From: an archaeon
GTDB lineage: Archaea; Iainarchaeota; Iainarchaeia; Iainarchaeales; 1-14-0-10-31-34
Assembly: GCA_043819075.1 (NCBI GenBank)
Contig: JBDRFE010000022.1
Location: 1 to 30,022, forward strand
Direction: 5' to 3'
Length of the DNA stretch: 30,022 nucleotides
Positions within the stretch are counted from its first letter, which is position 1. The number at the start of each line of letters is the position of its first letter. Positions 3,977 to 26,457 of the stretch are shown in pieces. The translations under genes and the position numbers were made by a program. A model generated the notes under the pieces. It saw only the letters and a program-made list of their open reading frames with translations, did not search any database and had not been told where the DNA came from.

Positions 3977-6900
3977 TCAGTTAATGCAGTCTGTTCCTGC
4001 AATCAAAGAATCCTCTAAATCATTAATGCTTTGCTTGCTTCCTGACTGCCTGAATAAGTTTTGTTCATTCCAGTAAACTTTCATTGAAGCATTATTTTGT
4101 GAAATGCATGCTGTGCCGTTTTTCACTAACTCAAAAACGTTTTCAATGTTTTTTAAGTAGTCTTCGCTGCCAGAACTGTTGAACTGCATTCCCTGTATTC
4201 CGTTCAATGAAACCAGCCCTGAATTCAGTTCATCTGCTGTGTAAAACCATGCATTCTGAACTGAACTTCCTGTATTTAATTTCAGCCTTATGTTTCTTTC
4301 AGTCGGGGTGTAAAAAACTGTTTTCAAAAAAGTGTTTCCTCCTTTGACTGCATTATTCCATTTAATTGAATACAAGTTCTGGTAGTTTGAAACTTCATTG
4401 CTTTGTGTTTTGCTGTCCCATCTGGCGTAATTTTGCAAAAAGCTTCCTTCAAAGTCCCTGCATCTCCCTAACCCGTTCCAGAAACCCAGCCTGTCATTTC
4501 CTGCCAGAATCGGAGTTTGTTCTTCCTGCATTCCGTAAAAATAACTGAAAGGGTTTTGTGTTGTTGGGGTTTGTTCGTGGAACATTTTTATTGCAACCGG
4601 AGTTGCTTTTGACGGATAAAATTTCATCTGGATTTCTTCTCCGTCATAATTCAGATTCAAAATGCTTCCCCTTGTTTCTTCTTTTGAATTCATTTCAATT
4701 AGAGAATCATTTTTTTCAACTGAAATATTGTTTAACGGAGTGCTTGAGTTATCGCTTGGATACAATGTTATTTCTGAATTCACTTTGAGTTCTTTTTCTC
4801 TGAGATTATTGTATCCTGTTCCATAGCCTGTTCTATGGAATACCCCGTTTTTTTCTCCTATTCTTCCGTCAAACGGCATGTAATAAAATATTGAGTCAGC
4901 GTCTGGGGTTGCAAGCCTGGTGAATTCAATTTTTATCTGTGCTTTAGGTGTTCCGTTTGATTCAAACAAATTCCATTTATCCCCTGAATAATTAATGCTT
5001 ACATCAATCCTGTATAATCCTGGCTCTGGCAATGCAAACCCGCTTTCATTCAGATACTTTCTGTTAAAAGAAATTTTTCCTGTTTTATAGTATTCTGCTA
5101 ACTCATTGTTTTTTGTTGCTGAATCAGAGTCAGTGAACCAGGTTGCTCCCTCTAAGAAAGCTTGTGTTTCATAGTATTCTGCAAAGTCTTGTCTGAAGTC
5201 CTCGCTGAAACCGTCTTTCATTAAATACGCGTTAAAATGGCTTAAATTTTTTATTTCTTCTATGATGTTTTTGATTTCAGGGCTTTCAGTATAAACTGTT
5301 GTTCCGTTTAATTTAACTGAATCCTGTGTAACGTATTTTCCTGTTAAAAGGTCTGTTTTGTTTAAGTAAAGATTTAATGGAAATACTTCTGCCATTATTT
5401 CTGTTGTTGTTCCGGCCCAGCACCTGCTTTCTTCAATCGCTTGTCTGTAATAAATAGTGGAAGTATTTGGATCAAATAATTCAAGATTTGTTAAAGCACC
5501 TGTTTCTGTTGGCAAGTGGCTTGCTTGTATTATATACACTTGTTCTTTTTCAGGCAGTTCAAATTCGCAGAAAACTTCTTTTTCTGAACCAGAAGAAATG
5601 TTTCCTGTTGGTTTAATGCAAGAGATTTCTCCTGTGTATTCAACTCCTTCTGGTATTGTCAGGTTTATTTTAACATCAACTGACATTGAAATCTCTGTTT
5701 TGTTTTCTATTATTATTGAAATTTTTGTTTTGTTTGTTTCATCATTTGTTTCAACATTGACTTCTTTTATTCCTATTTTTCCTTCTTCTACTATATTGAT
5801 TTTTGTTTCTTCCCATTGATTGCTTGCCAGTTCTTCTACAGCATTTTTTGGACAGGAAAAAGCATAACCGTTTTCTTTCATGAATTCATCTATTGCATGA
5901 ATTCTTTTGTTAAGCATTACAGTGAACTGCGCTGAATCACAGTAAACATAGTTTGTATTTGTTTGCTCGCATTCATTTAATGCAATTGCGCTCCATTCCC
6001 AGTTTAATTTCACTTTAGGCAAAGCGTTTTCTCCTGTTCCGCCTATTTCTCCTGTTGGTTTAACACAGTCAAGGCTTCTGTAAAGTGGAGGAATTTCTTC
6101 AATAAATCTTTGTGTTACTGCCCTTACATGGAATTTTCTTTGAACTTCTGTGTAGTCTTTATAATTAGGATTATCATCGTCGCCAGAATACTTGTCAGGC
6201 AAACCAAAATTAACTAAATCATCTGCCCTGTCATCATCTTTTCCCGGCACATTTAATTTTGCTGTTTGATTGTGTTCTGTTGCATTAACTGTCAGTATTC
6301 CATAAGTTGGTCTTATATTATCGTATTGATTAGTGTTTTTTTCAAACATTAACGGGAGAATTTCTTTTCCAGGAGGGCCATTTAAGTATATTAGTATTGC
6401 TTCTTCAAAATCCCAGCTTACTTCAATTCCCCTGATAGATAAGTCAATGCCAGTTAAATTTGGCGGGTTCCTGTCCGGAATTGGATTAATTGATTTAGCT
6501 CCTGCGCTTAAATTAATTAAATAGTCTAACATTGGTGCTGTTGTTCTGTCATCGCATGGGTCGTCACAGAAAAGACCTGTTATACAACCAATAAAGTTTA
6601 CTACAAAAGTTACTCCTGCCAGTATTCCTGCAGTAGCCCATCCGACTGGTCCTGCTGCAATTAAAGTGTATAAAACCACTGTCCCAAACGTTCCAGCCCC
6701 TGAAATAAAAGAATTACCAATATTTTTCAGGAATGAACTCTTTTGTGCGGTTTCCCAGACACAATTGCTTGCATCAACATCAACATTAGTGAATAATCTT
6801 TCATTATATAATTCAATTATATCCGGAACATTTCTTTCCGGCACAGCAATAGTGTAATTGTTTAAGCTAAAATAATGCCCTGAATTTGGTTCAGCTAATA

Positions 6901-11146: not shown

Positions 11147-11150
11147 CAAA

Positions 11151-11250
11151 ACCCCTCTGTTTTTTCCAGCTGTTAATGTATACTTTAGCTATTGAATAAT
11201 ATGCCTTTATTTATATTTAATTGTTTGTCTTGGTTCAAAAAATTTTTAAA
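11151..11250. promoter_or_regulatory. Divergent control region: SD and TATA candidates for giant gene 1 (minus) and a TATA box for the methyltransferase gene (plus)
   Basis: Minus strand: TTAAATATAAATA around 11220-11208 and SD-like AGAGGGGT at 11158-11151. Plus strand: TTTTTAAA at 11243-11250, 22-29 nt upstream of ATG 11272. Confidence 0.5.
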
Positions 11251-11271
11251 CTTGCAGTGCGTACTCTTTTT

Positions 11272-12378
11272 ATGAAAAACTTTTCTGCAGGAAAAATGCG
11301 TTTTGCTTTAGCTAAGGCTTCCTTTAAAGCTTCAAAGAAAACAAGAGCCTTTTTAGGCAAAACTCTAAGATTCAAACCTTTAAGGAAGCTGGTTTGGAGG
11401 GGTGAAAAAAGAAAAGTTTTGAAATATACTTCTTTGCCTAGTGAAATAAAAAGCGATATTTCTTTTATCCTTGCTTTCAGGGGGGCAAAAGCGCAGTCGA
11501 TTGCACTGGTAATTGTTGGGGCAGGCAATATTATTTTTCCACCTTGGTATTCAAAAGCCATAGGCGCAGTAGGTATTGGAGCCGGAGTATTTGTTACAAA
11601 AAAAAGAAACAAGGAAGTCGTTCACGCTACTGAACAATTAGGCCATTCGTTGTTTGTTTCAAAAGATAAAAGAATAGTTAAGCTAAGGAATTTATTCAAA
11701 TACATTGTTGTTGACATTGAAGGCAACTTAGTTGGGACAAATAAAAAGCCTTTTTTGGGGAAAATAGGGAGAAAAAGGATTTCTAAAAGTGACTCGTATT
11801 TAGGCAAGCACGATAAAAAGCTCTCTGATTCTGAAGCAAGGAAAGCAAGAAAAAAGTTTGCTAAAGCTTTTGCACTTGACTTGGGTGCAGGCTCTGGGGC
11901 AGAAAGAACAATAAAATATGCAAGGGAAAACCCTGACAGGATTTTTGTTGCGGTTGATACTGAAAACCCTTCTGTTAAATCCAGGATTGTTTTGAGGAAA
12001 GTTCCTAACCTGTTTTTTGTCAGGGCTGATGCATTGGAAGCATTAAAGCTTGTTGAATCCAGTTCAAAGCAGATTATTAATATGGATAATTTTCCTTTTT
12101 TTGATTCAGTCAATGAACTTCCTGTAAATATAGAATACAGGAAAATGCTTTTTTCTGAAGTCTTTCGTTCACTGAAACCAGGAGGCACACTTACTATAAC
12201 AACTGACCACTATAAGCTGGCAATAAAAGAATTAGCAGAAGCAGGCCTGAAAGTAAGAACTGCTGAGAGATGGGGTTCTAGAAACCTGACAGAAGACAAG
12301 GCAGCAAAATATACTGCTTATAGAATGTATTCGCTGAGAGGGGCTCCAATGCAGTTAACTGCAAAAAAGCCCAGATAA
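11272..12378 (+). CDS. Class I SAM-dependent methyltransferase (TrmB/KamB-like domain) fused to a highly basic N-terminal region with a hydrophobic Gly-rich segment
   Basis: Motif I FALDLGAGSG, then YARENPDRIFVAVD, PNLFFVRADALEAL and EVFRSLKPGGTLTITTD. The N-terminal ~200 aa is K/R-rich and contains SIALVIVGAGNIIFPPWYSKAIGAVGIGAGVFV. The start is moved from TTG 11221 to ATG 11272 on TATA spacing. Confidence 0.8.
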   Translation: MKNFSAGKMRFALAKASFKASKKTRAFLGKTLRFKPLRKLVWRGEKRKVLKYTSLPSEIKSDISFILAFRGAKAQSIALVIVGAGNIIFPPWYSKAIGAVGIGAGVFVTKKRNKEVVHATEQLGHSLFVSKDKRIVKLRNLFKYIVVDIEGNLVGTNKKPFLGKIGRKRISKSDSYLGKHDKKLSDSEARKARKKFAKAFALDLGAGSGAERTIKYARENPDRIFVAVDTENPSVKSRIVLRKVPNLFFVRADALEALKLVESSSKQIINMDNFPFFDSVNELPVNIEYRKMLFSEVFRSLKPGGTLTITTDHYKLAIKELAEAGLKVRTAERWGSRNLTEDKAAKYTAYRMYSLRGAPMQLTAKKPR

Positions 12379-12383
12379 TTGAA

Positions 12384-15300
12384 TCATTTTGTTATGCAGT
12401 TTTCCCCTGCTTTAAGCGAGGCTTTCACTGAATTAATTGAGTCATCAACTTTTTCCGGGTTCCAGAAAAAGTAAGAGTAACTTGAGTTTCCTATTCCACC
12501 TACGCAAACGTCCTCTGATTTAACCAAGTCAAGTATTTTCTGCAGTGAAGTTATTTCCAAGCTTGTTACTCCGTTTAATTCAACGAACTGGCTTGTTCCA
12601 GTCTGCTGGGTTATTGTTGCTTCATCGCTTGGAGTGAAAATTCTTGCATTGTCTCCTGCACTGATTAAATTCATTCTGGTCTGAGAATTTAACGGGCTAA
12701 AGATTAATGTCTCTAACCAGAATTTTCCGGTTCTAACCGGGCTCTTCCACACCCAGCCATAAGCTGTTGCCTTATTCTGTGTGATTTGCGCATAGCTTGC
12801 TTCATTGCTTAATCCATGTATATCTGGTGTTTCCATATAATCCTGTGAACTTCTGTCCAAAAAGTCTTTGCAGTTTGCTTCAATGCCACTCCATTTTGTT
12901 ATTCCCTCGCTTCCGGTGTTCTGGGACTGTCCGTCAACTGAAATTGAGTAAAACACATAAGCGTTTTCTGAAGGGTTTTCTTCCGGCCTGTCTATTTCAA
13001 GTATTACTGGTGTTGCAACTGAAGGAGTATAAGTTAATTTTGTTCCTGTTGAAGTCCTTTCAAACTGCATTATTTTTCCCCTGTCGTCTAAATTGCTTTT
13101 CTTGAAGTCAGTTGAATAAACTGTTTTAAGTTTTTCTGTTGGGTCTGCCACTGCCATTGGCACTGTCTTAATTGAGTGTGAACCGTCATTAATTCTTATC
13201 TGCTGGCCTTCAGTGTTTTCATAGTCCAATCCATATCCAATTCTTCCATTGCTTGAATTAATTCCTATTTCTCCGTCAAACGGCAGATAATATAATGGAG
13301 AATTTGGTTTTGCGGTTCTAAGCTTGTCCATTGAAATTGTTATTTTTGCGTTTGGAGTATTGCCTTTGAATAAATTCCATGAATTGTCGTTAAAAGAAAT
13401 GTCTATTCCAACTTTATATAATCCTGGTTCCTGTAATGGTGCATTCGGTGCTCCGGCGTAATCAAATTCAAACAATGAACTGTCTTTAAAGTATCTTCCT
13501 ATTCCAGTCTGGTCTTGTTCATTATAGTATGTTGTCGGTGCATCAAAGAATGCTGTGTTAACTGCGTAGTCGTGGAAGTCTTTTTGGAAGTCTGTGCTGT
13601 AGCCGTCAACTATTAAAAAAGAATTAAATCCGACTAATTCCATTAACCTTTCTTTTTGGCTTACAGGAGTTGTTTCTTCTGTTTTCTGGATTAACTCTGA
13701 TAACTTTAGAGTGCTACAGTTGTCTGTGCAGGTAATACCTGAATTTTCTAATCTTTGGGTTAATTCATCTATTTTTTGGAGTACTTCAATCGAAAACTGT
13801 GTTGCATCACAGTAAATATAGCTGTTGTTTGTTTCATCGCATGCGTTTTCTGGAATTCCGCTCCATCTCCATTCAAGCTTTATTTTTGGCAAAGCATTTT
13901 CCCCTGTTTCGCCAGTTAATTCTCCTATAGAGCATGAGCCAAAAGCATTTTGTGTGCCTGAAACATCATCTTCTGGATTAAATGAATTAAATTGCAATCT
14001 GTTGTATTGGTTGATGTAATCCTTTTTGTCTGTTAATTCTTTTAACCCTCTTTCAAAGTCATAGTCTGCTCCTTTAGTTAATTTTTCAAAGAAACTGTCA
14101 TTCCTGTTAAAGTAATCTGAGTTATACTGTGTTTCCCAGAAGTGTTCAGCTGACTCTGTTTTAAGTATTTTCATTATCGGGGTTTGTTCGTCTTCTTGTG
14201 TGATTCCGTTTTCATTGACAAAAGTTAAATCCCAGCAGTCTATTGTCTTGTTTTCAATTGAATCAAAGCAGTCAAACGGCCCCTCTAAAACCAATCCGAT
14301 GTCTGTATCCAATACTTCTTGTTTTGTTGTTGAATATTTTATTCCGTCTAACAGTTTGATGTTGTCTACTGTAATGTCGTTTGCTGTTGCCTTGAACTGC
14401 ATGTCGTCTGCTGTAAAATAATCGTATAATGTTGCTGCAGCAAAAGTTATTCCGAATACTGCAAAAGGGTTTGATGTGCCGAAAACGCTTTTTAAAATCT
14501 TGTCTAATCCGCCAATATTTGAAAGCAAGTCTAATCCTGGGATAATGCCATAACCTGTTGGAGTATCGTGTGCAAGAATTACCTTTCCTCCTGTTGGAGG
14601 AACTGTAGTTTCAGGGTTTGGAACACCAGAAGCTGGATTTTTTTTGTCGTCTTTTTTGTGCACTGCAGTGGCTACCCCGAATGCAATTACTGCAGGCAAT
14701 AATGCTTTTCTCATTGAAAGTGTAAGGTCCTGCAAATCAATTGTTACATTAACTGTTTTTTCATCACAGTAATTGTATATCTGTGCTGTGTCATAGCCGT
14801 CATATGGGTTGTCTATGTCATCATAGATGTCAAACTCATACCTGCTTAATTGCACGCAGGTGTCATCGTATACTGTCACAAAAATGTTTTGTATTTGTGT
14901 TTTTGTTGCAAGAGAAGTTCCTTTTGCTTCTGCTTTAATGATATATCTTCCGGTGAATGCGTCCCTTGAATCAATTGTTATTTCAGGGCTGGTTTCTTCT
15001 GAGCCTAAAGTAATTGCTGTCCTGCTTAATTTCAGTTCTTTTTCTGAATCAAAAGAAAAGTTTACATTGCTTCCGCAGCCTGAAGTTGAAACAGTGAAGT
15101 TTGCTTTTTCTCCTCTTTTAATGCTTAATTCTGTGTTAGAGAATTTAATGCAGTCCTCTAAATTAACTGCTTTTATTTCTGTGTGGATTTTGTCTTCAAT
15201 GAACTCGTCTTTTCCGTCTAATGGGTTTCTTGCTCTTACACTGATGTCTGCTGTTGCTGTTCCGTTTACTCCGCCGTTGACTTCAAATGCAAGTGTTGCA

Positions 15301-18300
15301 GTATAAATTCTGTTCTGCATTAAGTCAGTTAATTTTTTGTAGTAAGCTGATCTTAATTCAACTGGGTTTCCTTCAAAAGTTAAAGTATAGCTTCCAATGT
15401 GGTTTGACTTCCAGTCAACTTTTGCTTCCAAGTCATTTAATTCTATTGGCTCTCCGTTGATTGTGCATGAGTTTTCTATTCCGAAATCAATTTTTACTTT
15501 TATTCCTTCTGTTGTTGTCTTCCATTCTTTTGCCTCTAAAGTTAAGCAATTCGGGTCGTCTACTTCTCCGCCGATTCCAACAGTAATTTTTGCAGGAAGT
15601 TCTTCTGTCCAGACAGCTGTTCCGTTTGTGAACTCCATTTCAAAGTCTAAGTCAACTGTATCTCTTTCCTGCCTTGTTTTTGCGTATTCTGTGAGGATTC
15701 CTTTTACTTCAATTTCTTTTGTTATTTCTGATGGAATAATTATGTTGCCGTAATTTGTTTCCATCCAGGCATTCATTGCTTTTTCATCCAATAAATCCCT
15801 GAAGTTTCCTGAAAACTTTAATTCACTTAATTCTATGTCAAAGTCAAGCAGATTCTTTATTTTTAATGCAATTGTGTCAGAGGGATTTGTTTTAGTGTTC
15901 AACACAATTCCTATTTTATCCGGAGTGATTTCAACTATTTTGTCGTCAACTGCAAGTTCTTGTTCTAATACCTTGAATTCCTGTTTTTCCACTCTTACAA
16001 CTAATTTTGTGTCTGCTGTCTGGCCTGGAATTTCAATTAAAGCTTTTCCTGAGTGGTCTGTAAGAACAGGCCCTGCTATTAAATCATCAAACCTGTCAAT
16101 TATTTTTATTTGTGCGTCTTCTACTTCAACATCGTTTTCTTCGTTGAATACTGTTATTTCAACTGAGTTTGTTGTGTTTGAAGGGATTTTTTCTGGGTCA
16201 ACTTCTATTCTGAAAGTTTTTGGCGCTTCAACTTCTATTTGGATTGTTTTTTCAAAAACTATTTCTTGGCTTGAAACAATTTGGATTAAAATGCTGCCTG
16301 TTTTTGTTTCCTGTGTAATGAATTCAACTGTTGCGTTAATTGTTGTGTTCGGGTCAAAGTCCCCTAAGTCAATCCACGGAGTCTCGCTTGAGTCAGCTGT
16401 CCCGCTTCTGGTTAAAGAGTCAGCATTCCTTATTCTATAGTCTAAAAAGTTAAGCATCTCATTTTCATTTTTCAACTGAATTCTTGCAGCATAATGTTTC
16501 CTGCTTTTGTCATTATTCAGTATATTAAACTGCAGTTCATATTTTTGCAGTATTTTTGTTGGGTAAGAGCCTGAAACATTTCTTATAATGTCTTCTTTTA
16601 AGTCAGTTATTGTTGCACTGAAACAGAATTCTTCTGAACACAATACATTTGTGCCTACAGTAAAAGTTTTTTCTTTTGTTGCAGCATTTAATTCGTTTGA
16701 GGAACTAACACTTACGTCTGTCGGGTCTCTTTCTGTCTGTGAACCGGTTTTTCCGTATCCTCTGAACCTTAATTTTATTTCTTCTCCAAGCAAAGCATTT
16801 TCTTTTACTTTTATTACTGTATCAATATTGTATACTCCTGCTTTTGGCACAAGCCAGGATGAATTAAACCATTTTGCGTCTCCTTGGGTGCTGCTTTTCT
16901 TTGAGTCATTTAAATTGCTTTCATCAAACAAAGTGTATTTTGTTGTGATTGTATTCGGTGCATTAATTGTTTTTATTAAAATGTTGTCGTTTTCCATGAA
17001 TAAGTCGTTTCCTGTTCTGAAATGAATTCCTGCACTTTCATAATTCCTGTTTTCCGGCACAATAAATTGTATTCTTACAGTGTATTCTTCTCCTGCTTCT
17101 AATGCAGAAAACATTGTGTCTTCAACTAATTCGTTTCCCTTGAATACTCCTGCTATTTTTATTTCAGGTGCATCCATTCTTTTTTTTGGAATTAATTCAA
17201 TTGTTTCCTGAACTTCAGTTGAACCAAACACCGGGTAGCTTACACTATAATAATTCATGAAATCAGGTTTTTCTACTTTAAAGAAAACTTTTTTGTCTGC
17301 TTTTGTCTTGAATTCAATGCTTCCGTTGGAATCAGTTTTGTCTGCCTTTAATTCTTTTAATGTTCCTTCTTCGTAAAAGGTTACTGTTGCAAATGCAACA
17401 GTGTTTTTTTCTGCATCAATTATCTGGAGTTTTACTGTCCCATCAGGAATAATCATTGTTGCAATCAATTCTATTTCATCCTGGTTTCTCCTGTCATATA
17501 ATGTTTCGTCACTCCAGCCAGAAGAAGTTCCTTTGTAGGCAAAAGCCCTGTATGTTCCGTTTTTTATTTTAGTGAATTCAGCTGAACCGTTTGTGTCAGT
17601 TATTTTTTCGCTGACTCCTGCCAGAAATATTTCGTCTTCTTCAACTGAATACAATGCAATTCTTGCATTTCTTACAGGCTTTTCTTTTGTTCCTTCAACT
17701 GAAACTGCTTTAACTTTTAATGTTCCTGCATTTGTGCCTGTAAACTTTTCTAATTCAACTGTAATTGTTGTTCCGTCAGCTGAAATTCCTGTTGCTCTTT
17801 TCACTATGTATTGTTCGTTGTCTATTACTGCATCATAAACTGCTGTCTTGTTTTTAACATAAAATTCTGCTTTTCCTTCAGAGTTTGTTGTTCTTTCCTC
17901 TAATGATTCATTTCCTGAATACAATGTTATTTTTGTGTTTGGCAGAACACTTTTAGTGTCTTTGTCTGTTGCTTTAATTGAAATATAGCCTCCTTCTGGA
18001 ACAGCTCTTTCAAGTGAAATTACTGTGCTCTGGTTTCCGCTGAAATAAATTGTCCTGCTTTTTTCATAGTATGTTCCTGTTTCATCAAAAGCAGTTATTT
18101 TGTATTGCCCGTTGTCTAATTCGAATTCTGCCTGGCCGCTGAAAGTGTAAGAGCTGTCAGTGAAACTGGGATTAGAATTGTTTTCATATATTGCATAAAC
18201 ATTTACTTTTATTCCGTCTAATGCTGTTCCATTCTGGTTTTCAACTTCAACTGTCAGAATGCTTGTCTGTACTAATGAATCAAGGTAAATTTTGTTTGTC

Positions 18301-18989
18301 GGCTCAGACAATGAAACTGAAACGCTTTCTGAATGGTTTCCTGTAACTGAAGCAGTTAATTCACCGCAGTCTGATGGCTCGATTACTTCTCCTGAACCGT
18401 TTGAAATAGTTATTCTTGACGGCGGGGTTGCTTCTGGATTGCTGCATGAAAATGATACTGTATAAGTTTTTCCTGTGATTAACTCGCTTCTGTTTGTGCT
18501 GTCATACAATTTTATTGTCCTTTTAATTCCCTGTGCTGTTGCAGCTCCTGAGCTTAAAGTAATTGTTTTTTCTCCTGCTTCAGCGAACTTGAATGAATCA
18601 GTTTTTGTTTCAAAGCCTGTTTTCTTTATTTCAAATACAACAGTTGAATTCAACGGCACCTTGATTTTATCTGTTTTGCCGAAAGCATTTGTTGTAAGGG
18701 TTGTTGTTTTTTCATTGAATGTAAGTTCTATTGTACTCTGGCTTATTGCCTGGCCTTCTTCGCTGACTATCTTAAAGCTTAAATCTTTTTCTTCGCCTAA
18801 ACCTGTTCCTGTTATTGCTAGTATGCTGAATAAAAGTATTAAAATTATTATTCCGATTAACACCATAAAAGAGGGAATGATTTTGTCTATGGGGTCGGTT
18901 ATTTTTTGTATTGGAATTACTTTATTTATTTTTTCAATTACTTCATAGTATTTGTCTTCCAGGCTCAAATAAAAATCTTTTACTGCCAT
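12384..18989 (-). CDS. Giant membrane-anchored surface protein 2 (2201 aa), paralogue of proteins 1 and 3
   Basis: Same leader (MAVKDFYLSLEDKYYEVIEKI...IIPSF-TM), same beta-sandwich repeat series and shared motifs AGIHFRTG, TGENALPKIKLEWRW, YCDATQF and YYLPFDGEIG. SD GGTGA at 18998-18994. Confidence 0.9.
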   Translation of the reverse strand: MAVKDFYLSLEDKYYEVIEKINKVIPIQKITDPIDKIIPSFMVLIGIIILILLFSILAITGTGLGEEKDLSFKIVSEEGQAISQSTIELTFNEKTTTLTTNAFGKTDKIKVPLNSTVVFEIKKTGFETKTDSFKFAEAGEKTITLSSGAATAQGIKRTIKLYDSTNRSELITGKTYTVSFSCSNPEATPPSRITISNGSGEVIEPSDCGELTASVTGNHSESVSVSLSEPTNKIYLDSLVQTSILTVEVENQNGTALDGIKVNVYAIYENNSNPSFTDSSYTFSGQAEFELDNGQYKITAFDETGTYYEKSRTIYFSGNQSTVISLERAVPEGGYISIKATDKDTKSVLPNTKITLYSGNESLEERTTNSEGKAEFYVKNKTAVYDAVIDNEQYIVKRATGISADGTTITVELEKFTGTNAGTLKVKAVSVEGTKEKPVRNARIALYSVEEDEIFLAGVSEKITDTNGSAEFTKIKNGTYRAFAYKGTSSGWSDETLYDRRNQDEIELIATMIIPDGTVKLQIIDAEKNTVAFATVTFYEEGTLKELKADKTDSNGSIEFKTKADKKVFFKVEKPDFMNYYSVSYPVFGSTEVQETIELIPKKRMDAPEIKIAGVFKGNELVEDTMFSALEAGEEYTVRIQFIVPENRNYESAGIHFRTGNDLFMENDNILIKTINAPNTITTKYTLFDESNLNDSKKSSTQGDAKWFNSSWLVPKAGVYNIDTVIKVKENALLGEEIKLRFRGYGKTGSQTERDPTDVSVSSSNELNAATKEKTFTVGTNVLCSEEFCFSATITDLKEDIIRNVSGSYPTKILQKYELQFNILNNDKSRKHYAARIQLKNENEMLNFLDYRIRNADSLTRSGTADSSETPWIDLGDFDPNTTINATVEFITQETKTGSILIQIVSSQEIVFEKTIQIEVEAPKTFRIEVDPEKIPSNTTNSVEITVFNEENDVEVEDAQIKIIDRFDDLIAGPVLTDHSGKALIEIPGQTADTKLVVRVEKQEFKVLEQELAVDDKIVEITPDKIGIVLNTKTNPSDTIALKIKNLLDFDIELSELKFSGNFRDLLDEKAMNAWMETNYGNIIIPSEITKEIEVKGILTEYAKTRQERDTVDLDFEMEFTNGTAVWTEELPAKITVGIGGEVDDPNCLTLEAKEWKTTTEGIKVKIDFGIENSCTINGEPIELNDLEAKVDWKSNHIGSYTLTFEGNPVELRSAYYKKLTDLMQNRIYTATLAFEVNGGVNGTATADISVRARNPLDGKDEFIEDKIHTEIKAVNLEDCIKFSNTELSIKRGEKANFTVSTSGCGSNVNFSFDSEKELKLSRTAITLGSEETSPEITIDSRDAFTGRYIIKAEAKGTSLATKTQIQNIFVTVYDDTCVQLSRYEFDIYDDIDNPYDGYDTAQIYNYCDEKTVNVTIDLQDLTLSMRKALLPAVIAFGVATAVHKKDDKKNPASGVPNPETTVPPTGGKVILAHDTPTGYGIIPGLDLLSNIGGLDKILKSVFGTSNPFAVFGITFAAATLYDYFTADDMQFKATANDITVDNIKLLDGIKYSTTKQEVLDTDIGLVLEGPFDCFDSIENKTIDCWDLTFVNENGITQEDEQTPIMKILKTESAEHFWETQYNSDYFNRNDSFFEKLTKGADYDFERGLKELTDKKDYINQYNRLQFNSFNPEDDVSGTQNAFGSCSIGELTGETGENALPKIKLEWRWSGIPENACDETNNSYIYCDATQFSIEVLQKIDELTQRLENSGITCTDNCSTLKLSELIQKTEETTPVSQKERLMELVGFNSFLIVDGYSTDFQKDFHDYAVNTAFFDAPTTYYNEQDQTGIGRYFKDSSLFEFDYAGAPNAPLQEPGLYKVGIDISFNDNSWNLFKGNTPNAKITISMDKLRTAKPNSPLYYLPFDGEIGINSSNGRIGYGLDYENTEGQQIRINDGSHSIKTVPMAVADPTEKLKTVYSTDFKKSNLDDRGKIMQFERTSTGTKLTYTPSVATPVILEIDRPEENPSENAYVFYSISVDGQSQNTGSEGITKWSGIEANCKDFLDRSSQDYMETPDIHGLSNEASYAQITQNKATAYGWVWKSPVRTGKFWLETLIFSPLNSQTRMNLISAGDNARIFTPSDEATITQQTGTSQFVELNGVTSLEITSLQKILDLVKSEDVCVGGIGNSSYSYFFWNPEKVDDSINSVKASLKAGENCITK

Positions 18990-18990
18990 T

Positions 18991-19000
18991 CCCTCACCTT
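18991..19000 (-). promoter_or_regulatory. Shine-Dalgarno motif for giant gene 2
   Basis: Minus strand AAGGTGAGGG-A-ATG lies in the 19-nt gap after the stop of giant gene 3, which implies co-transcription. Confidence 0.7.
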
Positions 19001-19008
19001 TTTTTCCT

Positions 19009-22000
19009 TTAATTCATTTCATTCAATAATTTTTCTTTGTTCCACTGCAGTTCAAATTTGCTTGTGCTTGGGACAAAACAAACTGTTCCTGTTTCAATCT
19101 CTTCAATCCATTTCTTTATGCTTGTATTTTTTGCTATTTCTGCCGGTACTTCAGAGTTAAAGCTTGTTGTGTCAGGCAGGTCTGTTTCACTTGCTTTTCC
19201 TTTAATGTCAAAGTTATAGCCGGTCATTTCTTCTATTCCTGTATTACAGTGTTTCTGGAAAGTGTAAGCCCAGTCCGCTGGCACAAAGCTTAATGTTTTT
19301 TGTGTTGTTTTTGCGTCTGAACTGAAAATTATTCCAAATCTTGTGTCACTGCATGTACTTCCTTGTTTTAATCCTGATTCTTTTTGCTGGCTGTCTTTAA
19401 TTGAATTCCATTCAAGCAAATAGCTTAAGTCTTTTTCTTCTTTTATTCCAATTATTTTGTTGTCTGCTGCTGCTCCTCTGATTAAGTCATAAAAGACTCC
19501 TTTTGCTCCTGCAGTTCCTGCAAGAACTGCTTTTAATCCAATTGGCTTTGACGGGCTAAAAGTCATTCTGTCGCCGCTAATGTAAAGTATTCTTCCTTCT
19601 CTTGCCTGTTCAAATGTTGTTGTTTTTTCTGTGTTGGTTAATTTTTTTAGTGCACTGTTAATTGAATTGGTTTTTAGTTCCATTCCGTTTTCTTCTGTCA
19701 GGTAAATGTTTTTTACTGTCGGGTCTGCACCGTATTCTGTTCCATATCCTGTTCTTTTTGTTTCGTCTGTTACTCCGACTTTTCCGTCAAACGGAGTGCT
19801 GAACAAATAGTTTTGCCTGAAATCTTCTGAAAGGCTTTCCTGTTTTGTTAGTGAAACTTTTGTGTTTTCGCCTTTTTTGTCCCAGTCATAGTCAAAGAAT
19901 ACTTTGTATTTTCCTGAATCAAGTCTTTCTTTGTCAAAGCTCCATTTCTCAAAGAAAGAATTTTCTCTTGTGTACTCTGTTTTAAAGTCTGTTTTGAAGT
20001 CTGCTGTAATTCCGTCTTCTTTTAAGTATGAAGTGAATTCAATGTTTTCGTTATAGAATTCTTCTAATGTTTTTCCGATTAAAGCTGTTGCCCTTGTTTT
20101 TCCTTCTTTCATTATTTTTATCCTGTTTTCTTCTGAAACAATTTCAATATTCCTTACCCCTGTCTTGAATACGATTTCCTGCTGTAATGTCCTGAGGAAT
20201 TCCAGGTCAATGAAAACTGGCCCAAGGCCTTTTATTTTGTTCATTTCGCATGAAATTGCATTCGGGTCAGAGTCAGCGCATGCTTTTAATCTGTTCCTGA
20301 ATTCCTTGTACTCATTAAAAGTTATTGCGTATTTGTCTGCGCTTCCCTCTATCCTGTCTGCCCCAATTGCCTCTAATTTTCCTTTGTTGGTTATTTTTGT
20401 CCCATCAACTTCGCCTAAAACTGCTTTCTCGTCAATTGAAGAATCAGCCTGCATTGCGGTAATTATCCTGTCAATTTCTCCTGTAATTGTTTTTGCGTTC
20501 CCTGCATTTAATCCGAATTCAAGTACATCTTTTATTGTTTTAATGTCTAAATTAACTTTTGTTCCCTCAAATTTTTTTCCTGCAATAACTGAATACCCGC
20601 TGTCAATGAAGAATATTTGTGTTGTGCCTGTAATGTCGTCTTTTATTTTTGTCTGGTCAATCAAAAACCTGAATAAATTCTTTGAATTCCTTATCTCGCA
20701 GTATCCCTGGCATAATGCTGCAAGTTCTTTTGCCTGTAATGCATCAATTTTTTCTGCTTTCTTGTTTAATTCTATTGCCAACTGTGCTGAGTCACAGTAA
20801 GTGTTTCCTGAATCACATTCATTGAATGCAATGTTATCCCAGTTCCAGTCTAATTTTATTTTATCCAAACCATATTTTTCTAATGCGGTTTTTCCTGTCA
20901 CTGCATCGGAATTGCATGCCTGGACTTCATCTGAAATTGTTTCGCCAAGCAATGAATCTATTATTGCCTGAATCTCTTCGTCTGTTATTTCTGCACAAAT
21001 TGATTTTATCTGGATTTTCAATTCCTGTATTTTTATGTTAATGTCTTTTCCTGTGTCTGATATAATGTCTTCAACTTTTTGCTCTTTTTCTGCATCTTCT
21101 TTGCATATTTTTTGTTCTGCTGTCAGTGGCTTTACGTCTTTGCATAATTCAATTGAAAAAGGAATTGTAACTGTTTTTGTTTCTAATGGATTGACTCTGG
21201 ATAATCTCATCTGCAGTGTTCCTGAAATCTTTCCCGGATTGACTGTCAGGTTTGTTTTGTCCACTGAAACTTTTATTTTATCCCCGTCTTCTATGCTGAA
21301 GTTTATCACAACCCCTGATTCATCTGTTATTTTGCTGTTAATTATTTGTGTTATTGTGTCAGTGTCTCCGCAGTATTTTCCGTTAGGGTTTTTGTTGTCT
21401 TTCTTGTAAATCACTTTTCTTGAATCAATAAACTGGCTTATGTTGTTTCTGAATAATTCGTTTGGAATACATGAATCAAACTGTAATGCTTTCTGGTCAA
21501 TGCAGTTCTGATGTGATATGCTTGGGTCTCCGAAATCAATTATTGTCTGCTCTGATAAAGCCCATAAGTCTTCTATTATTATGTCAAATGGAATAATTTG
21601 TGTCATTCCAGTCCTGTCAGAGAAAGTAACCGGAAGCCTTTCCTCTGATTCAACTGTATAATATAATCCGGTTAATTTAACCCTTAAGTTTGCTAATTCA
21701 ATTAACGGGTTTTCGCTTGAAGGAAGGCTTTTTCCTTTTAAAGTATAATAGTCAAGGTTTTTTCTCATCCTGAATTTTAGTTCCTGCATTATTTTTCCGT
21801 CATTTCCGGGCTTGTTGACTAACTGGATTAATTCAATTGATTTAATTACTCCAGAGCTCTCTAATTTTTTCTGTCCTGTGTCTTGTGGTGAAGGAAAACC
21901 ATAATTTCCTGTTCCGCTTAAGTCCCTTGGAATTGACTGCTGTGTTAATCTTATTCCTAAGTCATAGCAGGTATTCCATATTATTCCTTCAACCGGCCTC

Positions 22001-25000
22001 TGGATTAAGTCATTGAATTCAAACACTCTTTTGTTTATTGAAATGCAGTCATAGTAATTTCTTTCTAATTCTGATTCAATCAATACATTATATTTTGCAA
22101 TTTCTTTTGGCGAGTCGCTTGAATCCTTGTGTTTTGCCCTGATTGTTAAAGGATACTGGCCGATAAAAATTGTTGGTGTTACTTCAATGGTTTTGTTTCC
22201 GCCTGAAGGCAATGCTATTGTGCTGTCTGAAACGCTTATTTCGGCGCTTCCCTCTATTTCAATTTGCACTGTTGTCGGGCAGTCGTTTTGGATTTCAATT
22301 GAGCCTGTTCCTGTTGCACCATAATTCCATGTAAAATTGTTTGTAGGGCTGTATCCTGTCGGGTTAGTGTACATTGAATTATAATAATTGCTTGGATACT
22401 GCTGGCTTGTCCATCCGTCTGGGAAAACAACATTAGAGTTATTCCTTAAACTTCCGGCTGAAGCTGTTGGATCATAAGGATAGCTGTTGAATGCATAACT
22501 GCTGTTGTTTGCACTCAAAACATTTGGGTTCATTCCATAATAGTAAGTGTTTGAAGGATTATAGCCAAAATAGTTCTGCATATTGCCGTAGCCGTAATTA
22601 TAGTTGTTCATTGAAATTCTTAGCTGGTTTGTTGCAGGCCTTATTCTGATGCATTGGCTTAACCTGCTTATTTCTGTCTGAACAGTTATTTTTTGTGTTA
22701 GTTTTTCGTCTCCGCTTTCTGTCGGGTTAATTGCTTCAATGTAAATTGTTGCTGTGCCAGAGCCTAATGCAATGTCATCTGGGGTAAAGCTTATTGAAAG
22801 GTTTTCTTCTTCTCCTGAGTTAGGGTTAAATGAGTCTGCAATTATTTTGTAACTGTCGCTTAACCTTATTGTATTGCTTCCTTCAATTAAGGATGTTAAA
22901 TCAATGCTTCCGATTGCATTTTCTTTCCAGACAACTTTTGCTTTAATATCCTTTAATGAAATGTTTTCTTCGTCAACTTTGCATGAATTTACCAGAACAA
23001 GTTTAAGTTCTTTTTTCGTGTTTTCTGTTAATGCAGTCCAGGAATTCGGGCTTAAAGTAAAACAGTCAGGTGAATCAACTTCTCCTCCTAATCCTATTGT
23101 GGCTTTAACCGGGAGGCTTGCAGTCCATTGTTTTCCTGCTTCAAGGTTTTCAAATACAATAATTATTTCTCCTTCAACTGTTGTTACTTCTTTTACTTGT
23201 TTTCCTTTGTCTGTCATTCCTAAAGTCAATAAAACCTGTTCTTCGTTTCCAATCAATAATTCTTTTCCTGTGAAGTCCTGCACCTGAACTGAAATCAATC
23301 CCTTGAATGAATCAGTTGAATCAACTGCAATTACAGTCAAAGGCATTTCAGTTGTATTCTTTAATATAATATCTCTTGTCACCTTGAATTCATTTTTTAC
23401 ATTAAATGTTTCTTTTATTTCTGTCGGGGTAAAAGCAACAACATTTTTTTGTATTATTATTTCTTTTTCAACCGGATTAAAGCCGCTTTTTTCTGCTTTG
23501 ATTAAAATAACTGTTTCTGGTTCCATTGACTCAAAAGCATAAGCAAATACTCCGTCAGAATCTGTTTTCCCTGAGGCAATCAATAAATCATTTTTCCTTA
23601 TTTTTATTTCTGCTTCATTTAATTCATCGCCTTCTTCGTCTGTTATCCTTACAAGCAAATTATTTTTTATGAACGGCACAAGGTTTTTCGGGACAGTTGT
23701 TATTGCCATTGTTTTTGCCTGGCTTACTTCTGCCCTGATTGGCTTGAACAAAATTTTTTCTTTTCCTAAATTAACTGTTTCGCCGAATAAGCTGAAGTCA
23801 ATCCTGTTTGTTCCCTCGCTTTTTGTGGTGAAAACAATTTTCCCTGAAATCTTGTCTCCTTTTGAAATGCTTCCTGTCTTGAAGGTTATTTTTTTTTCTG
23901 AGCCAAGATTTTTTTGTGTTTCCTGTATTTCATAAGAGTTTAATTCAATTCCTTTTCCTTCTATTACGAGTTCACTGCCGGAAAAAGTTTTTTCGTTTAT
24001 GCTGATTATATTGAATTCCATTTCATATGAACTTGAAATTTCTGCAGGAAAGGAGTCAATAATATTTGTTGTTGTTGCATTCTGCAAATCTTTTACCCTG
24101 AAAGAAGAGCAAAAGTTTTCTGCACACAGGCTTGATGCCCCTTCGCTTAAAGGCTCGTGCCTTGTTTTTGCATACAATGCCTGTTTTGCTGTAGTGCTTT
24201 CTGATTCCTGTAATTCTTCGTCATACGGGTCTCTTTGATATCCTTGTTCCTGTATCCATGCCCTGTAAGCTAATTCCATTGGCCCGCCGTTTAATAAGTC
24301 TTTTATCTGGATTACTGCTTCTATTTCGTATGTTCCTTCTTTGATTGAATCAAGTATTATGTTAGCCCATTTAGCTGAACCAGAAGTTAAGTGCTTTGAG
24401 TCAATTCCATATCCTGTTGGCGGATTAAATGTTGTGCCTTTGACTATTTTTGCATTTGAAGCTGAAACGCTTTTAATAAACAAATCGTCTTTTTCCATTG
24501 TATTGTTCTGGTTTTTTGTGTCTGCTCCGGTCCTTATATGGATTCCTGCGTTATTTGAGGCAGTTCCTTTTGGAACCATTAACTTGAATTTTGCCTTATA
24601 TGTTTTTCCTGTTGTAACGCTTGAATTTTCAACTTCCCTTCCGTCAAGACTTAATTCCTCTAATTTTATTCCAAAAGAGCTGATTGAGTCTTCTAATGAA
24701 ATTGTTTTTTCTTCTGTTCCGTCAAACATCTGGATTGGAGCAGTAGTGTATTTTGAGTGAGAGCTCTCGCTTACCTCTAAATAAACTTTTTTGTCTGCTC
24801 TAATATTAAAGCTTTTTCTTCCTTCAATGTCAGTTGAGTCAGCTGAAATTTCTTTTCCAGTAAAAAAATCTATTACTTTTATTGTTGCTGACTGGATTGG
24901 CTGTTTTTCTTTGTCTACAACCAGTACATCTAATGTTCCCTGGCCAATATTCAGCCTGATTTCAATTTTCTGGGGTTCTTTTTCTTTTACTTCAATTATT

Positions 25001-26457
25001 TTTGAGTCAGCGCCTTCAAAGCCTCTTTTTTCTGCTCTGACAATATATTTTCCTTCTTTTAATCTGTCAAAAACTGCTTTTCCGTCAAAGCCTGTTACTT
25101 TTTCTTCTCCTGTAATGCTTCCACTAACAGCATCCTTCAAAAACACTTTAGTGTCTTCAACTGCTTCGCCTTTTTCATCTATTACTTTTACTTCAATGCT
25201 TTTCTTGTTTGTTGCAGTTGCTTCCTGTAAAACAAATTCGCTGAAACTAGCTGAAGGGCTTAAAGTTTTTGCATTAGAGTTAAGGTAATCTGCGTGGCTG
25301 ACTGTTACAGTGAAATCAATTGCTTCAGCCACATTAAATACTGCTTCTCCTGCTGTGTTTGTCCTCTGCTGGTTTATTTCAGTGTCATCCTTGAATAATT
25401 TTATTAAAGCGTTTTCAACCGGGTTTCCTGCCTCGTTTTTCACCCTGATTTTTATTTCCCCTATTACCCCTTTTTCCATTATTATTTCATTGAAGTTAAT
25501 GCTCTGGTTGTTGGAATTAACTGTAACTGTAGTTGTTTCTTCTCTTGAATCAAAGTCCTTGAATTCTCCTGAAGAATCTGTTGCCTTAATATAATATGAG
25601 CCAAAAGAAACTTCTGCAGAGCATTCCCCTGTAAAAGTCGTGCAATAATTTTCTGCTGAATAGTTTCCTACAGGAATAGCCATTGCTTTTATTCCATTCA
25701 AATAATTTCCTGTTTCATCTTTTACTGTAAAATAAATCGTCCCTTTTTGTGCTGAAGTTTCCTCTAAATAAATTTTTATTAATGTTGAATCCGAATCAAA
25801 GTCACAGTCCTGGCTGCAATCCAATCCGATTGGCGATGCAAGGATTTTCCCGCAGTTTGCCGGAACATCATTTAATTCAGTTTTTCCAGTGCTAAAAGAA
25901 ACTCTTTCGCTCCAAGAACTGTTTTCTGAACAGCTGAAAAGCACATCAATTTCTTCTGTTAACAAACTGTCTCCTTTTCCAAGCAATTGCACGCTTATCG
26001 GCTTAAGCAAATCAGACAATAAAGAAATGCTTCCTGTTTTAGATTTATTTGAATTAAATGTCTGGGTTGTTTTTTTGAAACCGTTTTTTTCTGCACTGAC
26101 ACTAAAATCTTTTCCTTCAGTTACTTTTAATACAGCCTTTCCTTTGCTGTCTGTTGTTAAAGTAATTGTTTCTTCTCCTGACAAAAAAGTTATTTTTGCG
26201 CTGTCAATTCCTGTTATACCATCTGTTACAGTTAATTCAAAATCTGTTTTTGATTCAAATATCCCCCCAGAGCTTAATGCAATGAATGCTCCTGAAAAAA
26301 TTAATAAAACAAGTATTACTGCTATCGGAAAAGATGGAATGTTTTTTGCTTCAAGAAAATCAATTGCTTTGTATACCGGGATTCCGCTTTTGTCAAGTGA
26401 ATCCATTAAACCATAATATTTTTCTTCAATTGACGAATAGATTTCCTTTAATCCCAT
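19009..26457 (-). CDS. Giant membrane-anchored surface protein 3 (2482 aa), paralogue with a Tyr/Asn-rich low-complexity insert
   Basis: Leader MGLKEIYSSIEEKYYGLMDSL...IPSF-TM, beta-sandwich repeats, motifs AGIHIRTG, AKWANI, KIKLDWNW, YCDSAQL and STPFDGKVG, and a 98-aa Y/N-rich tract at 22611-22318. Confidence 0.9.
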   Translation of the reverse strand: MGLKEIYSSIEEKYYGLMDSLDKSGIPVYKAIDFLEAKNIPSFPIAVILVLLIFSGAFIALSSGGIFESKTDFELTVTDGITGIDSAKITFLSGEETITLTTDSKGKAVLKVTEGKDFSVSAEKNGFKKTTQTFNSNKSKTGSISLLSDLLKPISVQLLGKGDSLLTEEIDVLFSCSENSSWSERVSFSTGKTELNDVPANCGKILASPIGLDCSQDCDFDSDSTLIKIYLEETSAQKGTIYFTVKDETGNYLNGIKAMAIPVGNYSAENYCTTFTGECSAEVSFGSYYIKATDSSGEFKDFDSREETTTVTVNSNNQSINFNEIIMEKGVIGEIKIRVKNEAGNPVENALIKLFKDDTEINQQRTNTAGEAVFNVAEAIDFTVTVSHADYLNSNAKTLSPSASFSEFVLQEATATNKKSIEVKVIDEKGEAVEDTKVFLKDAVSGSITGEEKVTGFDGKAVFDRLKEGKYIVRAEKRGFEGADSKIIEVKEKEPQKIEIRLNIGQGTLDVLVVDKEKQPIQSATIKVIDFFTGKEISADSTDIEGRKSFNIRADKKVYLEVSESSHSKYTTAPIQMFDGTEEKTISLEDSISSFGIKLEELSLDGREVENSSVTTGKTYKAKFKLMVPKGTASNNAGIHIRTGADTKNQNNTMEKDDLFIKSVSASNAKIVKGTTFNPPTGYGIDSKHLTSGSAKWANIILDSIKEGTYEIEAVIQIKDLLNGGPMELAYRAWIQEQGYQRDPYDEELQESESTTAKQALYAKTRHEPLSEGASSLCAENFCSSFRVKDLQNATTTNIIDSFPAEISSSYEMEFNIISINEKTFSGSELVIEGKGIELNSYEIQETQKNLGSEKKITFKTGSISKGDKISGKIVFTTKSEGTNRIDFSLFGETVNLGKEKILFKPIRAEVSQAKTMAITTVPKNLVPFIKNNLLVRITDEEGDELNEAEIKIRKNDLLIASGKTDSDGVFAYAFESMEPETVILIKAEKSGFNPVEKEIIIQKNVVAFTPTEIKETFNVKNEFKVTRDIILKNTTEMPLTVIAVDSTDSFKGLISVQVQDFTGKELLIGNEEQVLLTLGMTDKGKQVKEVTTVEGEIIIVFENLEAGKQWTASLPVKATIGLGGEVDSPDCFTLSPNSWTALTENTKKELKLVLVNSCKVDEENISLKDIKAKVVWKENAIGSIDLTSLIEGSNTIRLSDSYKIIADSFNPNSGEEENLSISFTPDDIALGSGTATIYIEAINPTESGDEKLTQKITVQTEISRLSQCIRIRPATNQLRISMNNYNYGYGNMQNYFGYNPSNTYYYGMNPNVLSANNSSYAFNSYPYDPTASAGSLRNNSNVVFPDGWTSQQYPSNYYNSMYTNPTGYSPTNNFTWNYGATGTGSIEIQNDCPTTVQIEIEGSAEISVSDSTIALPSGGNKTIEVTPTIFIGQYPLTIRAKHKDSSDSPKEIAKYNVLIESELERNYYDCISINKRVFEFNDLIQRPVEGIIWNTCYDLGIRLTQQSIPRDLSGTGNYGFPSPQDTGQKKLESSGVIKSIELIQLVNKPGNDGKIMQELKFRMRKNLDYYTLKGKSLPSSENPLIELANLRVKLTGLYYTVESEERLPVTFSDRTGMTQIIPFDIIIEDLWALSEQTIIDFGDPSISHQNCIDQKALQFDSCIPNELFRNNISQFIDSRKVIYKKDNKNPNGKYCGDTDTITQIINSKITDESGVVINFSIEDGDKIKVSVDKTNLTVNPGKISGTLQMRLSRVNPLETKTVTIPFSIELCKDVKPLTAEQKICKEDAEKEQKVEDIISDTGKDINIKIQELKIQIKSICAEITDEEIQAIIDSLLGETISDEVQACNSDAVTGKTALEKYGLDKIKLDWNWDNIAFNECDSGNTYCDSAQLAIELNKKAEKIDALQAKELAALCQGYCEIRNSKNLFRFLIDQTKIKDDITGTTQIFFIDSGYSVIAGKKFEGTKVNLDIKTIKDVLEFGLNAGNAKTITGEIDRIITAMQADSSIDEKAVLGEVDGTKITNKGKLEAIGADRIEGSADKYAITFNEYKEFRNRLKACADSDPNAISCEMNKIKGLGPVFIDLEFLRTLQQEIVFKTGVRNIEIVSEENRIKIMKEGKTRATALIGKTLEEFYNENIEFTSYLKEDGITADFKTDFKTEYTRENSFFEKWSFDKERLDSGKYKVFFDYDWDKKGENTKVSLTKQESLSEDFRQNYLFSTPFDGKVGVTDETKRTGYGTEYGADPTVKNIYLTEENGMELKTNSINSALKKLTNTEKTTTFEQAREGRILYISGDRMTFSPSKPIGLKAVLAGTAGAKGVFYDLIRGAAADNKIIGIKEEKDLSYLLEWNSIKDSQQKESGLKQGSTCSDTRFGIIFSSDAKTTQKTLSFVPADWAYTFQKHCNTGIEEMTGYNFDIKGKASETDLPDTTSFNSEVPAEIAKNTSIKKWIEEIETGTVCFVPSTSKFELQWNKEKLLNEMN

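Follow-up and report, generated by a model that had tools for sequence, protein, structure and literature searches.

Giant paralogous stalk proteins in a conserved, pilus-linked locus of Iainarchaeota archaea

Why does an archaeal genome of 1.235 megabases (Mb) keep, side by side, three genes for giant proteins built on the same stalk? The question arises from contig C22 (JBDRFE010000022.1; 30,022 base pairs (bp)), analysed here in its entirety and called the window, of an Iainarchaeota (DPANN) assembly (GCA_043819075.1; 1,235,492 bp, 75 contigs, 34.6% G+C) whose named homologues belong to Ca. Diapherotrites or Iainarchaeum. On its minus strand lie the genes for giants A (19009–26457; 2482 amino acids (aa)), B (12384–18989; 2201 aa) and C (3977–11149; 2390 aa), which together take up 21,228 bp, or 1.7% of the 1.235-Mb assembly. 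A sequence-only reading had explained their equal repeat number by assembly of the three chains in register. Here we describe a cluster of four giant classes, Z, A, B and C, that appear to be ancient and that share a conserved gene order and a pilus-type neighbourhood. We suggest, at about an even chance, that each contributes a distinct, non-redundant subunit to a single contact apparatus, which is linked to the pilus, has a fixed composition and engages a second membrane.

The locus bears on how DPANN archaea attach to and draw on partner cells, an open question for which tomography shows cones, tubes and bridges; the accessible part of one account states that the proteins forming DPANN cell bridges are unknown (10.1101/2023.02.24.529834). 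It offers a concrete, order-wide candidate with parts whose structures can be expressed and solved (the head, the hairpin domain of C, D and h7, all described below), and it is relevant to the questions of whether Iainarchaeota live freely or depend on hosts and whether some have bacterial partners.

Four ancient classes of giant protein

Along the direction of transcription, the genes are Z, D, A, B, a methyltransferase (opposite strand), C, s1–s5, u6 (opposite strand) and h7. The open reading frame (ORF) at 28384–30021 (minus strand), which encodes 545 aa with two Gly/Ala-rich hydrophobic segments flanking a long polar helical stretch, is the end of Z, because an exact 141-nucleotide overlap carries it onto contig C40, where this fourth paralogue of 2464 aa begins. 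The count of three giants therefore stands for A, B and C, but the cluster holds four, and a fifth paralogue, Y (2064 aa), lies elsewhere, near cdc6 on contig C73 (24174–30368, minus strand). All five together make up ~2.8% of the genome.

The ORFs and their alignment agree with the sequence-only reading of A, B and C as collinear paralogues with a leader, a transmembrane (TM) segment and six repeats: they are ~27% identical to one another across the first ~1,300 aa (E at most 1e-89). Every giant of the Z, A, B and C classes has a conserved ~40-aa leader, which ends in PSF in the consensus, and a single N-terminal TM segment (median hydropathy about 3.0), followed by a stalk of about 11 β-sandwich domains of fixed length and then a class-specific insert; A, B and C share a terminal head. 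The leader consensus contains no class III signal motif, and the giants do not appear to be pilins themselves. Motifs read from the window (the repeat-2 Cys pair, AGIH[FI]RTG, AKW and the seventh repeat, then K[VI]KLxWxW, YCD[SA]xQ, DG[FYI][ST]xDFxxDF, PFDG, RxGYG and C...WN) were all found in place in the alignment, with DGFSEDF in C and DGYSTDF in B as claimed. Two others hold overall but fail in C, which has IEND instead of [ME]E[NK]D and CxxxxxC instead of CxxxxC.

The locus was retrieved from 37 relatives, 36 of the window's order and one outside it, picked for long contigs and family spread from 172 matching genomes and thus a non-random sample; the 36 and the window's own locus are referred to as the 37 order loci. 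A FastTree phylogeny of the first 1,350 residues (138 rows, excluding 5′-open ORFs, second halves of split genes and one fragment) yielded clades for Z (20 rows, support 100), A (34, 99), B (36, 95) and C (37, 99), and host families recurred within every one of them; five fast C rows (families f2 and f8), one B, two Y-like and two other-order rows fell outside. IQ-TREE, applied to 45 rows from 11 genomes, recovered Z (11/11) and A (11/11) as clades and placed one long-branch C inside B. Because the paralogues group by position and not by genome, recent expansion, which the sequence-only reading had set against ancient clades, is not supported, and the trees indicate that A, B and C (and Z) are ancient orthologous classes. 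Compared with a congener, the ratio of nonsynonymous to synonymous substitution rates (dN/dS) was ~0.26–0.27 for Z, A and C at a dS close to 1; by this measure the three are under purifying selection.

Residues 600–960 of B matched 172 of 215 phylum genomes (56 of the 58 that are at least 90% complete), most commonly three times per genome. Of 89 genomes that are at least 88% complete, the head profile matched 84, these being 84/84 of the window's order and 0/5 of other orders; it also matched 860 clusters formed at 50% identity and listed without taxonomy, of which 784 reached E 1e-10 or better. By comparison, h7 matched 17 of 19 genomes of other orders, and several of these carry giants with the same leader, D-like genes, s1–s4 and u6 in a similar order. 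Given how differently h7 and the leader giants are spread from the head, the skeleton of the locus is phylum-wide and the A/B/C set with its common head order-specific. Within this survey of the phylum, the named matches were all Diapherotrites or Iainarchaeota except for one D homologue labelled Micrarchaeota (55% identity).

The order Z-D-A-B-C was complete in 31 of the 37 order loci and interrupted by contig ends in four more; in most cases the small membrane proteins and the HerA-like h7 come next. The expected single copy held within these loci for Z, A and B, which showed no tandem duplication there, but not for C, which was present as two full-length tandem copies in six loci and off-cluster in two genomes: one had no C in the cluster and two C-class genes elsewhere, and one further genome had an additional C. 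Counts of the classes over whole genomes cover 12 order genomes. A, B or C was interrupted in four loci, which may be assembly error. An additional C-class giant lies beside a ribosomal protein operon in one genome (L107:6262–13893). Y is unlinked, variable and sometimes split; it often adjoins a cdc6, PolD or helicase gene (loci L091–L099), and in some genomes its head is encoded apart from it, on a secreted gene that also has PKD and dockerin domains.

A stalk of fixed length and class-specific inserts

The repeat number proved to be preserved well beyond the window: all 131 complete rows, made up of 20 Z, 34 A, 36 B and 41 C, have six stalk repeats, a count that excludes seven rows which were truncated, Y-like or out-of-order. 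The six-repeat block totalled 508–571 aa, except in one B, where ~120 extra residues, comprising three Cys/Asp repeats within repeat 3, brought it to 654 aa. From a landmark ahead of the TM segment, the median distance to the AGIH motif was 601–610 aa in all four classes, and the length up to the last common Cys was 1,234–1,265 aa in A, B and C (standard deviation (sd) 16–17 aa). The repeat-2 Cys was found in all A (34/34), B (36/36) and C (41/41) rows and in no Z row (0/20). Repeats inside one protein are ~22% identical, and repeats at corresponding positions of different paralogues align more closely (score 47 versus 16 within a protein); as judged from these alignments, the six-repeat stalk predates the duplications. 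Slippage is not expected between repeats so old and diverged, so their fixed number is weak evidence for co-assembly; it needs no co-assembly, as a fixed distance to span would yield the same pattern.

Beyond the stalk, each class has its own insert, those of A, B and C being encoded on the minus strand of the window. A carries an uncharged stretch rich in Gly, Tyr, Asn, Ser, Gln and Pro (22285–22614; residues ~1282–1391), and an uncharged run of at least 30 residues, mostly Gly, Tyr, Asn, Ser and Gln, was found within residues 1250–1600 of 32 of the 34 A rows. The B insert is Gly-rich and amphipathic (14424–14708; residues ~1428–1522). In three family f8 genomes, B is split directly before the matching Gly-rich segment; the distal part would have to be held by protein contacts, because this separate gene has a start that resembles a cleavable signal peptide (read by eye) and no anchor. 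B proteins of family f10 (L037, L042) have large Cys-rich distal insertions and 88–100 Cys, compared with 20 in the window's B. C contains a Cys-flanked hydrophobic helical hairpin within a β domain (6581–6766; residues ~1462–1523), and Z has two Gly/Cys-rich hydrophobic helices that flank several hundred variable polar residues. Averaged over 19 residues, hydropathy reached 1.8 or more, marking a hydrophobic segment, in 30/41 C, 4/20 Z, 0/34 A and 0/32 B rows, and it reached 1.5 in 15/20 Z rows. In a model of C residues 1305–2390 (predicted local distance difference test (pLDDT) 85, predicted TM-score (pTM) 0.80), the hairpin forms model helices 158–219, with low confidence at the tip, and the high pTM suggests that the distal half of C is one rigid body. 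Among the Z tails of 30 genomes scanned, one has an SLT domain and one an amidase with a weak glucosaminidase match. A degenerate transglycosylase, suspected by eye in most Z tails, was not supported, as a profile of 12 tails reached MltC at E 0.45 (hhalign probability 0.4).

A general profile detected the head in 22 of the 34 A rows, and a profile specific to A detected it in the remaining 12; the A head is far more diverged than those of B and C. Z seems to lack it (best E 0.034 among 28 with the terminal profile; weak matches in 2/28 with a wider profile). The head matched no Pfam family above cut-off and no PDB sequence under E 0.4; it had no usable match among the named ESM Atlas clusters, where a blank means neither absence nor novelty. 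Searches with Foldseek against PDB and viral models returned only strings of immunoglobulin (Ig) domains (whole-model TM-score at most 0.13), and the structural alignment rows (VIA-align) spanned C-model residues 7–117 and 484–602 and barely covered the hairpin domain and the head.

Partner genes and pilus neighbourhood

Between Z and A lies the gene for D (26545–28359, minus strand; 604 aa), a large pilin-like protein with a Cys-rich body and a putative class III-type signal, KG/FTLF. Such a start was found in 33 of 34 D homologues. D matched a ComGF model below cut-off (E 0.003) and had no Pfam or PDB sequence match; its ESM Atlas look-alikes are Iainarchaeota and Aenigmatarchaeota clusters, with a DUF7286 cluster at 0.90 as a lead only.

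Downstream of C are the small membrane proteins s1 (3596–3937), s2 (3267–3599), s3 (3012–3266) and s4 (2700–3011), the poorly conserved, membrane-anchored s5 (2212–2700), all on the minus strand, u6 (1614–2207, plus strand), a conserved soluble protein whose C-terminal half reads as heptad-like, and h7 (1–1515, minus strand). The s1 profile aligned with those of s2 and s3 at hhalign probabilities of 97.8 and 96.8, and s1–s3 form a second paralogous triad of the locus; their profiles matched no VirB2/CedA1-type PDB chain at E 10. The profile of h7, a HerA/CedD-like P-loop protein, matched HerA (4d2i) at E 5.7e-5, with DUF87 detected in 7 of 19 members and a weak, nearly full-length match to the CedD model, far below cut-off, in 2 of 19. 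The Walker A motif GxxGxGK[ST] was missing from all 19 aligned rows, and h7 may be a non-catalytic scaffold.

Upstream of Z, on the opposite strand, a pilus-type ATPase (T2SSE above cut-off) was present in eight of the ten genomes for which this region was retrieved, accompanied by TadC-like and pilin-like genes wherever the stretch extended to them; T2SSF matches next to the ATPase were below cut-off (E 2.6e-4 and 9e-4). A gene of the exosortase/archaeosortase family lay between the pilus genes and Z in 9/10 (for example, L124:9041–9454 and L081:10975–11460). In the window's genome the pilus genes are on contig C62, which ends within the sortase-family gene and, from the arrangement in relatives, probably adjoins C40. 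The prepilin peptidase Arc_PepC_II is unlinked, on contig C13. The ATPase on C62 (L124:4144–7959) has 1272 aa compared with ~760 aa in relatives and carries an insertion of ~505 aa at the P-loop region, which is probably an intein. Elsewhere, an ordinary S-layer protein is encoded (matches to S_layer_C and S_layer_MJ above cut-off), so the giants are additional to the S-layer.

A candidate contact apparatus

These data allow us to propose how the favoured apparatus, in which Z, A, B and C are non-redundant subunits, might work. It would incorporate or surround a type IV pilus-like filament, and the leaders of the giants would dock on a membrane base made of s1–s3, s4/s5, u6 and the catalytically dead HerA-like h7. 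Equal stalks, each roughly 45 nm long when extended (given ~4 nm for each such domain), would raise the distal bodies to a common level above the S-layer. There, C and Z, through their hydrophobic hairpins, and B, through its amphipathic segment, would engage the membrane of a partner cell, with C as the variable, partner-adapted subunit. Stoichiometry need not be 1:1:1, and a rod fits no better than a ring or collar that encircles the filament. We infer four of these steps, namely the contact between chains, the base, the membrane that the hairpins enter and the partner cell. A multi-subunit apparatus with divided work is suggested by the shared leader and stalk length, the different business ends, the fixed gene set and the pilus link. 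Evidence in its favour includes the orthologous clades, kept gene order, absence of tandem copies of A, B and Z, constant repeat number, fixed proximal length and inserts at the same place, the detached distal half of B in family f8, the pilus ATPase (8/10), sortase-family gene (9/10) and s1–s3 triad, the head in 84/84 order genomes, the skeleton in other orders, purifying selection and the wall-hydrolase Z tails (2/30).

Several observations weigh against this proposal. Co-regulation alone can maintain gene order. The split halves of B in family f8 could re-pair by completing one β domain, with no other giant needed, and some C hairpins (hydropathy up to 3.3) could integrate into the cell's own membrane during export. 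In one order locus there was no Z within the 8.8 kilobases (kb) retrieved upstream of D, and the copy number and position of C vary (duplicated or moved in eight genomes). Wall-hydrolase domains were found neither in the window's Z nor in 28 of the 30 Z tails. In addition, a free-living life is proposed for members of the phylum in the accessible parts of two accounts (PMC5905446, PMC6349945).

A bolder version is, in our estimate, only about half as probable: the locus may be an ancestral Iainarchaeota host-contact machine, a membrane-engaging secretion or feeding apparatus unlike the described type III, IV and VI systems. Four giant struts would ring the pilus, and the tip hairpins would insert and open a junction in the partner cell. 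A would line the channel with its Gly/Tyr/Asn-rich gel on a base formed by a pseudo-ATPase ring, and Z would deliver its variable helical domain and, in some lineages, cut the bacterial wall. If true, this would hint that some of these archaea attack bacteria.

Alternative explanations

The rival that survives best, although we consider it unlikely, is that the giants are envelope struts or arches: the hairpins would sit in the cell's own membrane or outer layer, and the stalk would serve as an envelope ruler in a collar, dome or pore frame. This would fit a length that is fixed only between the N-terminal TM segment and the insert, hairpins that reach TM-level hydropathy (at least 1.8 in 29 of 40 C inserts taken alone; maximum 3.3) and a locus carried by nearly every genome of the order, as is common for envelope parts. 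However, the genome already has its ordinary S-layer gene, B retains the amphipathic segment even behind a new signal peptide-like start, and some Z tails bear bacterial-wall enzymes. The C insert, which has at least two Cys in 37/40 rows, varies from 68 to 437 aa and is among the least conserved distal parts (0.17, versus 0.29–0.41 in most flanking blocks), more like a partner-facing element.

Less probable still is the strict in-register oligomer, a single rod of one A, one B and one C, with or without Z, under a trimeric head. Domain count and landmark offsets do match across the classes, the head is common to A, B and C, and A and B are single-copy. The register proposed by the sequence-only reading holds for the first ~1,250 residues but not distally, where the sd of the spacing rises from 16–17 aa to 67–218 aa: the paralogues are collinear over the first ~1,270 residues and again in the terminal head, and not over the 400–600 residues between. 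From the last common Cys to the head motif there are 409–732 aa in A (25 of 34 scored), 446–1,344 aa in B (32/32) and 350–740 aa in C (41/41), and the medians from the end of the common stalk differ by class (A 618, B 663, C 467). As distal lengths vary, register is confined to the proximal half. Other features speak against the rod as well: the fourth class, Z, has the same stalk; C is duplicated or moved; the ~120 extra residues of the outlier B are missing from its partner A; and the A head is much more diverged than the other two. Furthermore, a model of B residues 505–1284 (pLDDT 94, pTM 0.65) shows a chain of six complete single-chain β-sandwiches with no trimerizing coiled-coil or collagen segment.

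On a par with the rod, and similarly improbable in our view, the giants could be four old paralogous fibrillar adhesins that act alone or as homo-oligomers on their own ligands and are kept together by co-regulation. Their stalk domains match folds known from adhesins, namely CnaB, transthyretin-like, CLIPPER and pilin (Z-scores 11–13): repeat 6 is transthyretin/CnaB-like (Z-score 13.2, root-mean-square deviation (rmsd) 1.4, 81 residues aligned), the AGIH domain resembles CLIPPER and TTHA1873 (Z-scores 11.4–11.7, rmsd 2.5–2.7, 120–127 aligned), and the last two domains of the B model are MSP/PapD-like. In Pfam, CarboxypepD_reg was above cut-off in A and C and slightly below in B. The repeats are too diverged to slip, which accounts for their fixed number, and the unlinked, variable and sometimes split Y and the additional C copies would be expected of adhesins. 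However, independent adhesins are usually gained and lost, whereas all classes are retained across the order; the linkage to D, s1–s3, u6, h7 and the pilus genes, and the class-specific inserts at one position, would go unexplained. As a separate observation, the AGIH domain (B residues ~600–780; window 16650–17192) resembles isopeptide-forming CLIPPER/pilin domains and has conserved Lys, Asn and Asp residues.

Comparison with known systems

With bacterial fibrillar adhesins and Gram-positive pilins, the giants share an anchor, a string of Ig-like domains and a distal body. They differ in having an N-terminal anchor with a conserved cytoplasmic leader, a fixed repeat count, four co-inherited classes, internal hydrophobic hairpins and a head without Pfam or PDB sequence match. 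Pilus loci that encode coiled-coil proteins have been described from Undinarchaeota and cluster 2 DPANN (10.1101/2023.02.24.529834); as far as the accessible part of that account goes, they likewise combine putative host-contact genes with those for a pilus ATPase, a TadC-like platform and pilin-like proteins, whereas here the partners are β-sandwich giants and not pilins.

The Ced/Ted import and conjugation-like systems, according to the parts available (PMC11868833, PMC11823120, PMC9905601), resemble the locus in combining a HerA/VirD4-like protein with several small membrane proteins. Against this, h7 lacks the Walker A lysine and matches CedD far below cut-off, and s1–s3 have no CedA1/VirB2 match in PDB. 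To our knowledge, Ced has no giant stalks. Membership of Ced or type IV secretion was rejected, as none of the 19 h7 rows has the Walker A motif of an active ATPase. The attachment organelle of Nanobdellota, a cone with a portal, is likewise a large structure of the envelope that surrounds a filament and touches the host membrane (PMC11420986), and it pictures what a locus of this kind might build. It belongs to a different phylum, and the accessible text names none of its component proteins. Cones and nanotubes are also reported from other DPANN co-cultures in the accessible parts of two papers (PMC11420986, PMC11329633).

Strings of macroglobulin (MG)-type β-sandwiches recall α2-macroglobulin and complement (bMG3 just under the Pfam cut-off; Foldseek), but the likeness is at the domain level only (whole-model TM-scores 0.12–0.16). 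The α2-macroglobulin thioester motif is CxEQ, and membership of that family was rejected because the conserved YCD[SA]xQ of the giants is not this motif. Fusexins (HAP2/Fsx1) have a C-terminal TM anchor after domains I–III; the giants, anchored at the N terminus and ending in a soluble head, were rejected as fusexins. HAP2 domain III was a generic Ig match (Z-score 9.6, rmsd 2.8, 101 aligned), on a level with numerous unrelated Ig domains.

The closest published record concerns Ca. Forterrea multitransposorum, for which the accessible part of the genome paper mentions five membrane-anchored proteins of more than 1,800 aa in a 42-kb region, with a likely role in cell–cell interaction (PMC5905446). 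That region is probably the same locus, given that the locus is order-wide. The part of the account available is one sentence and a figure legend, with no mention there of paralogy, conservation, domains or neighbours. Full-text searches, with subscription papers and bioRxiv supplements mostly outside their reach, returned no other description, and term searches of the accessible parts of PMC4858521, PMC8407392 and PMC6349945 turned up nothing on the locus; it is real, old and apparently undescribed beyond that sentence.

Other features of the locus

A TrmB-like SAM methyltransferase gene (11221–12378, plus strand; Methyltransf_4 above cut-off), with a basic, hydrophobic N-terminal half, lies between B and C in the window and in none of the 37 relatives' loci. 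Five further matches to pilus/secretion-type ATPases are spread over contigs C2, C5, C52 and C26 of the genome. In other orders, a coiled-coil-like gene lies 3′ of h7 on the opposite strand and is followed by DNA polymerase B (L100:3757–4257, L102, L105, L106), and this polymerase gene is also found 3′ of h7 in many loci of the window's order.

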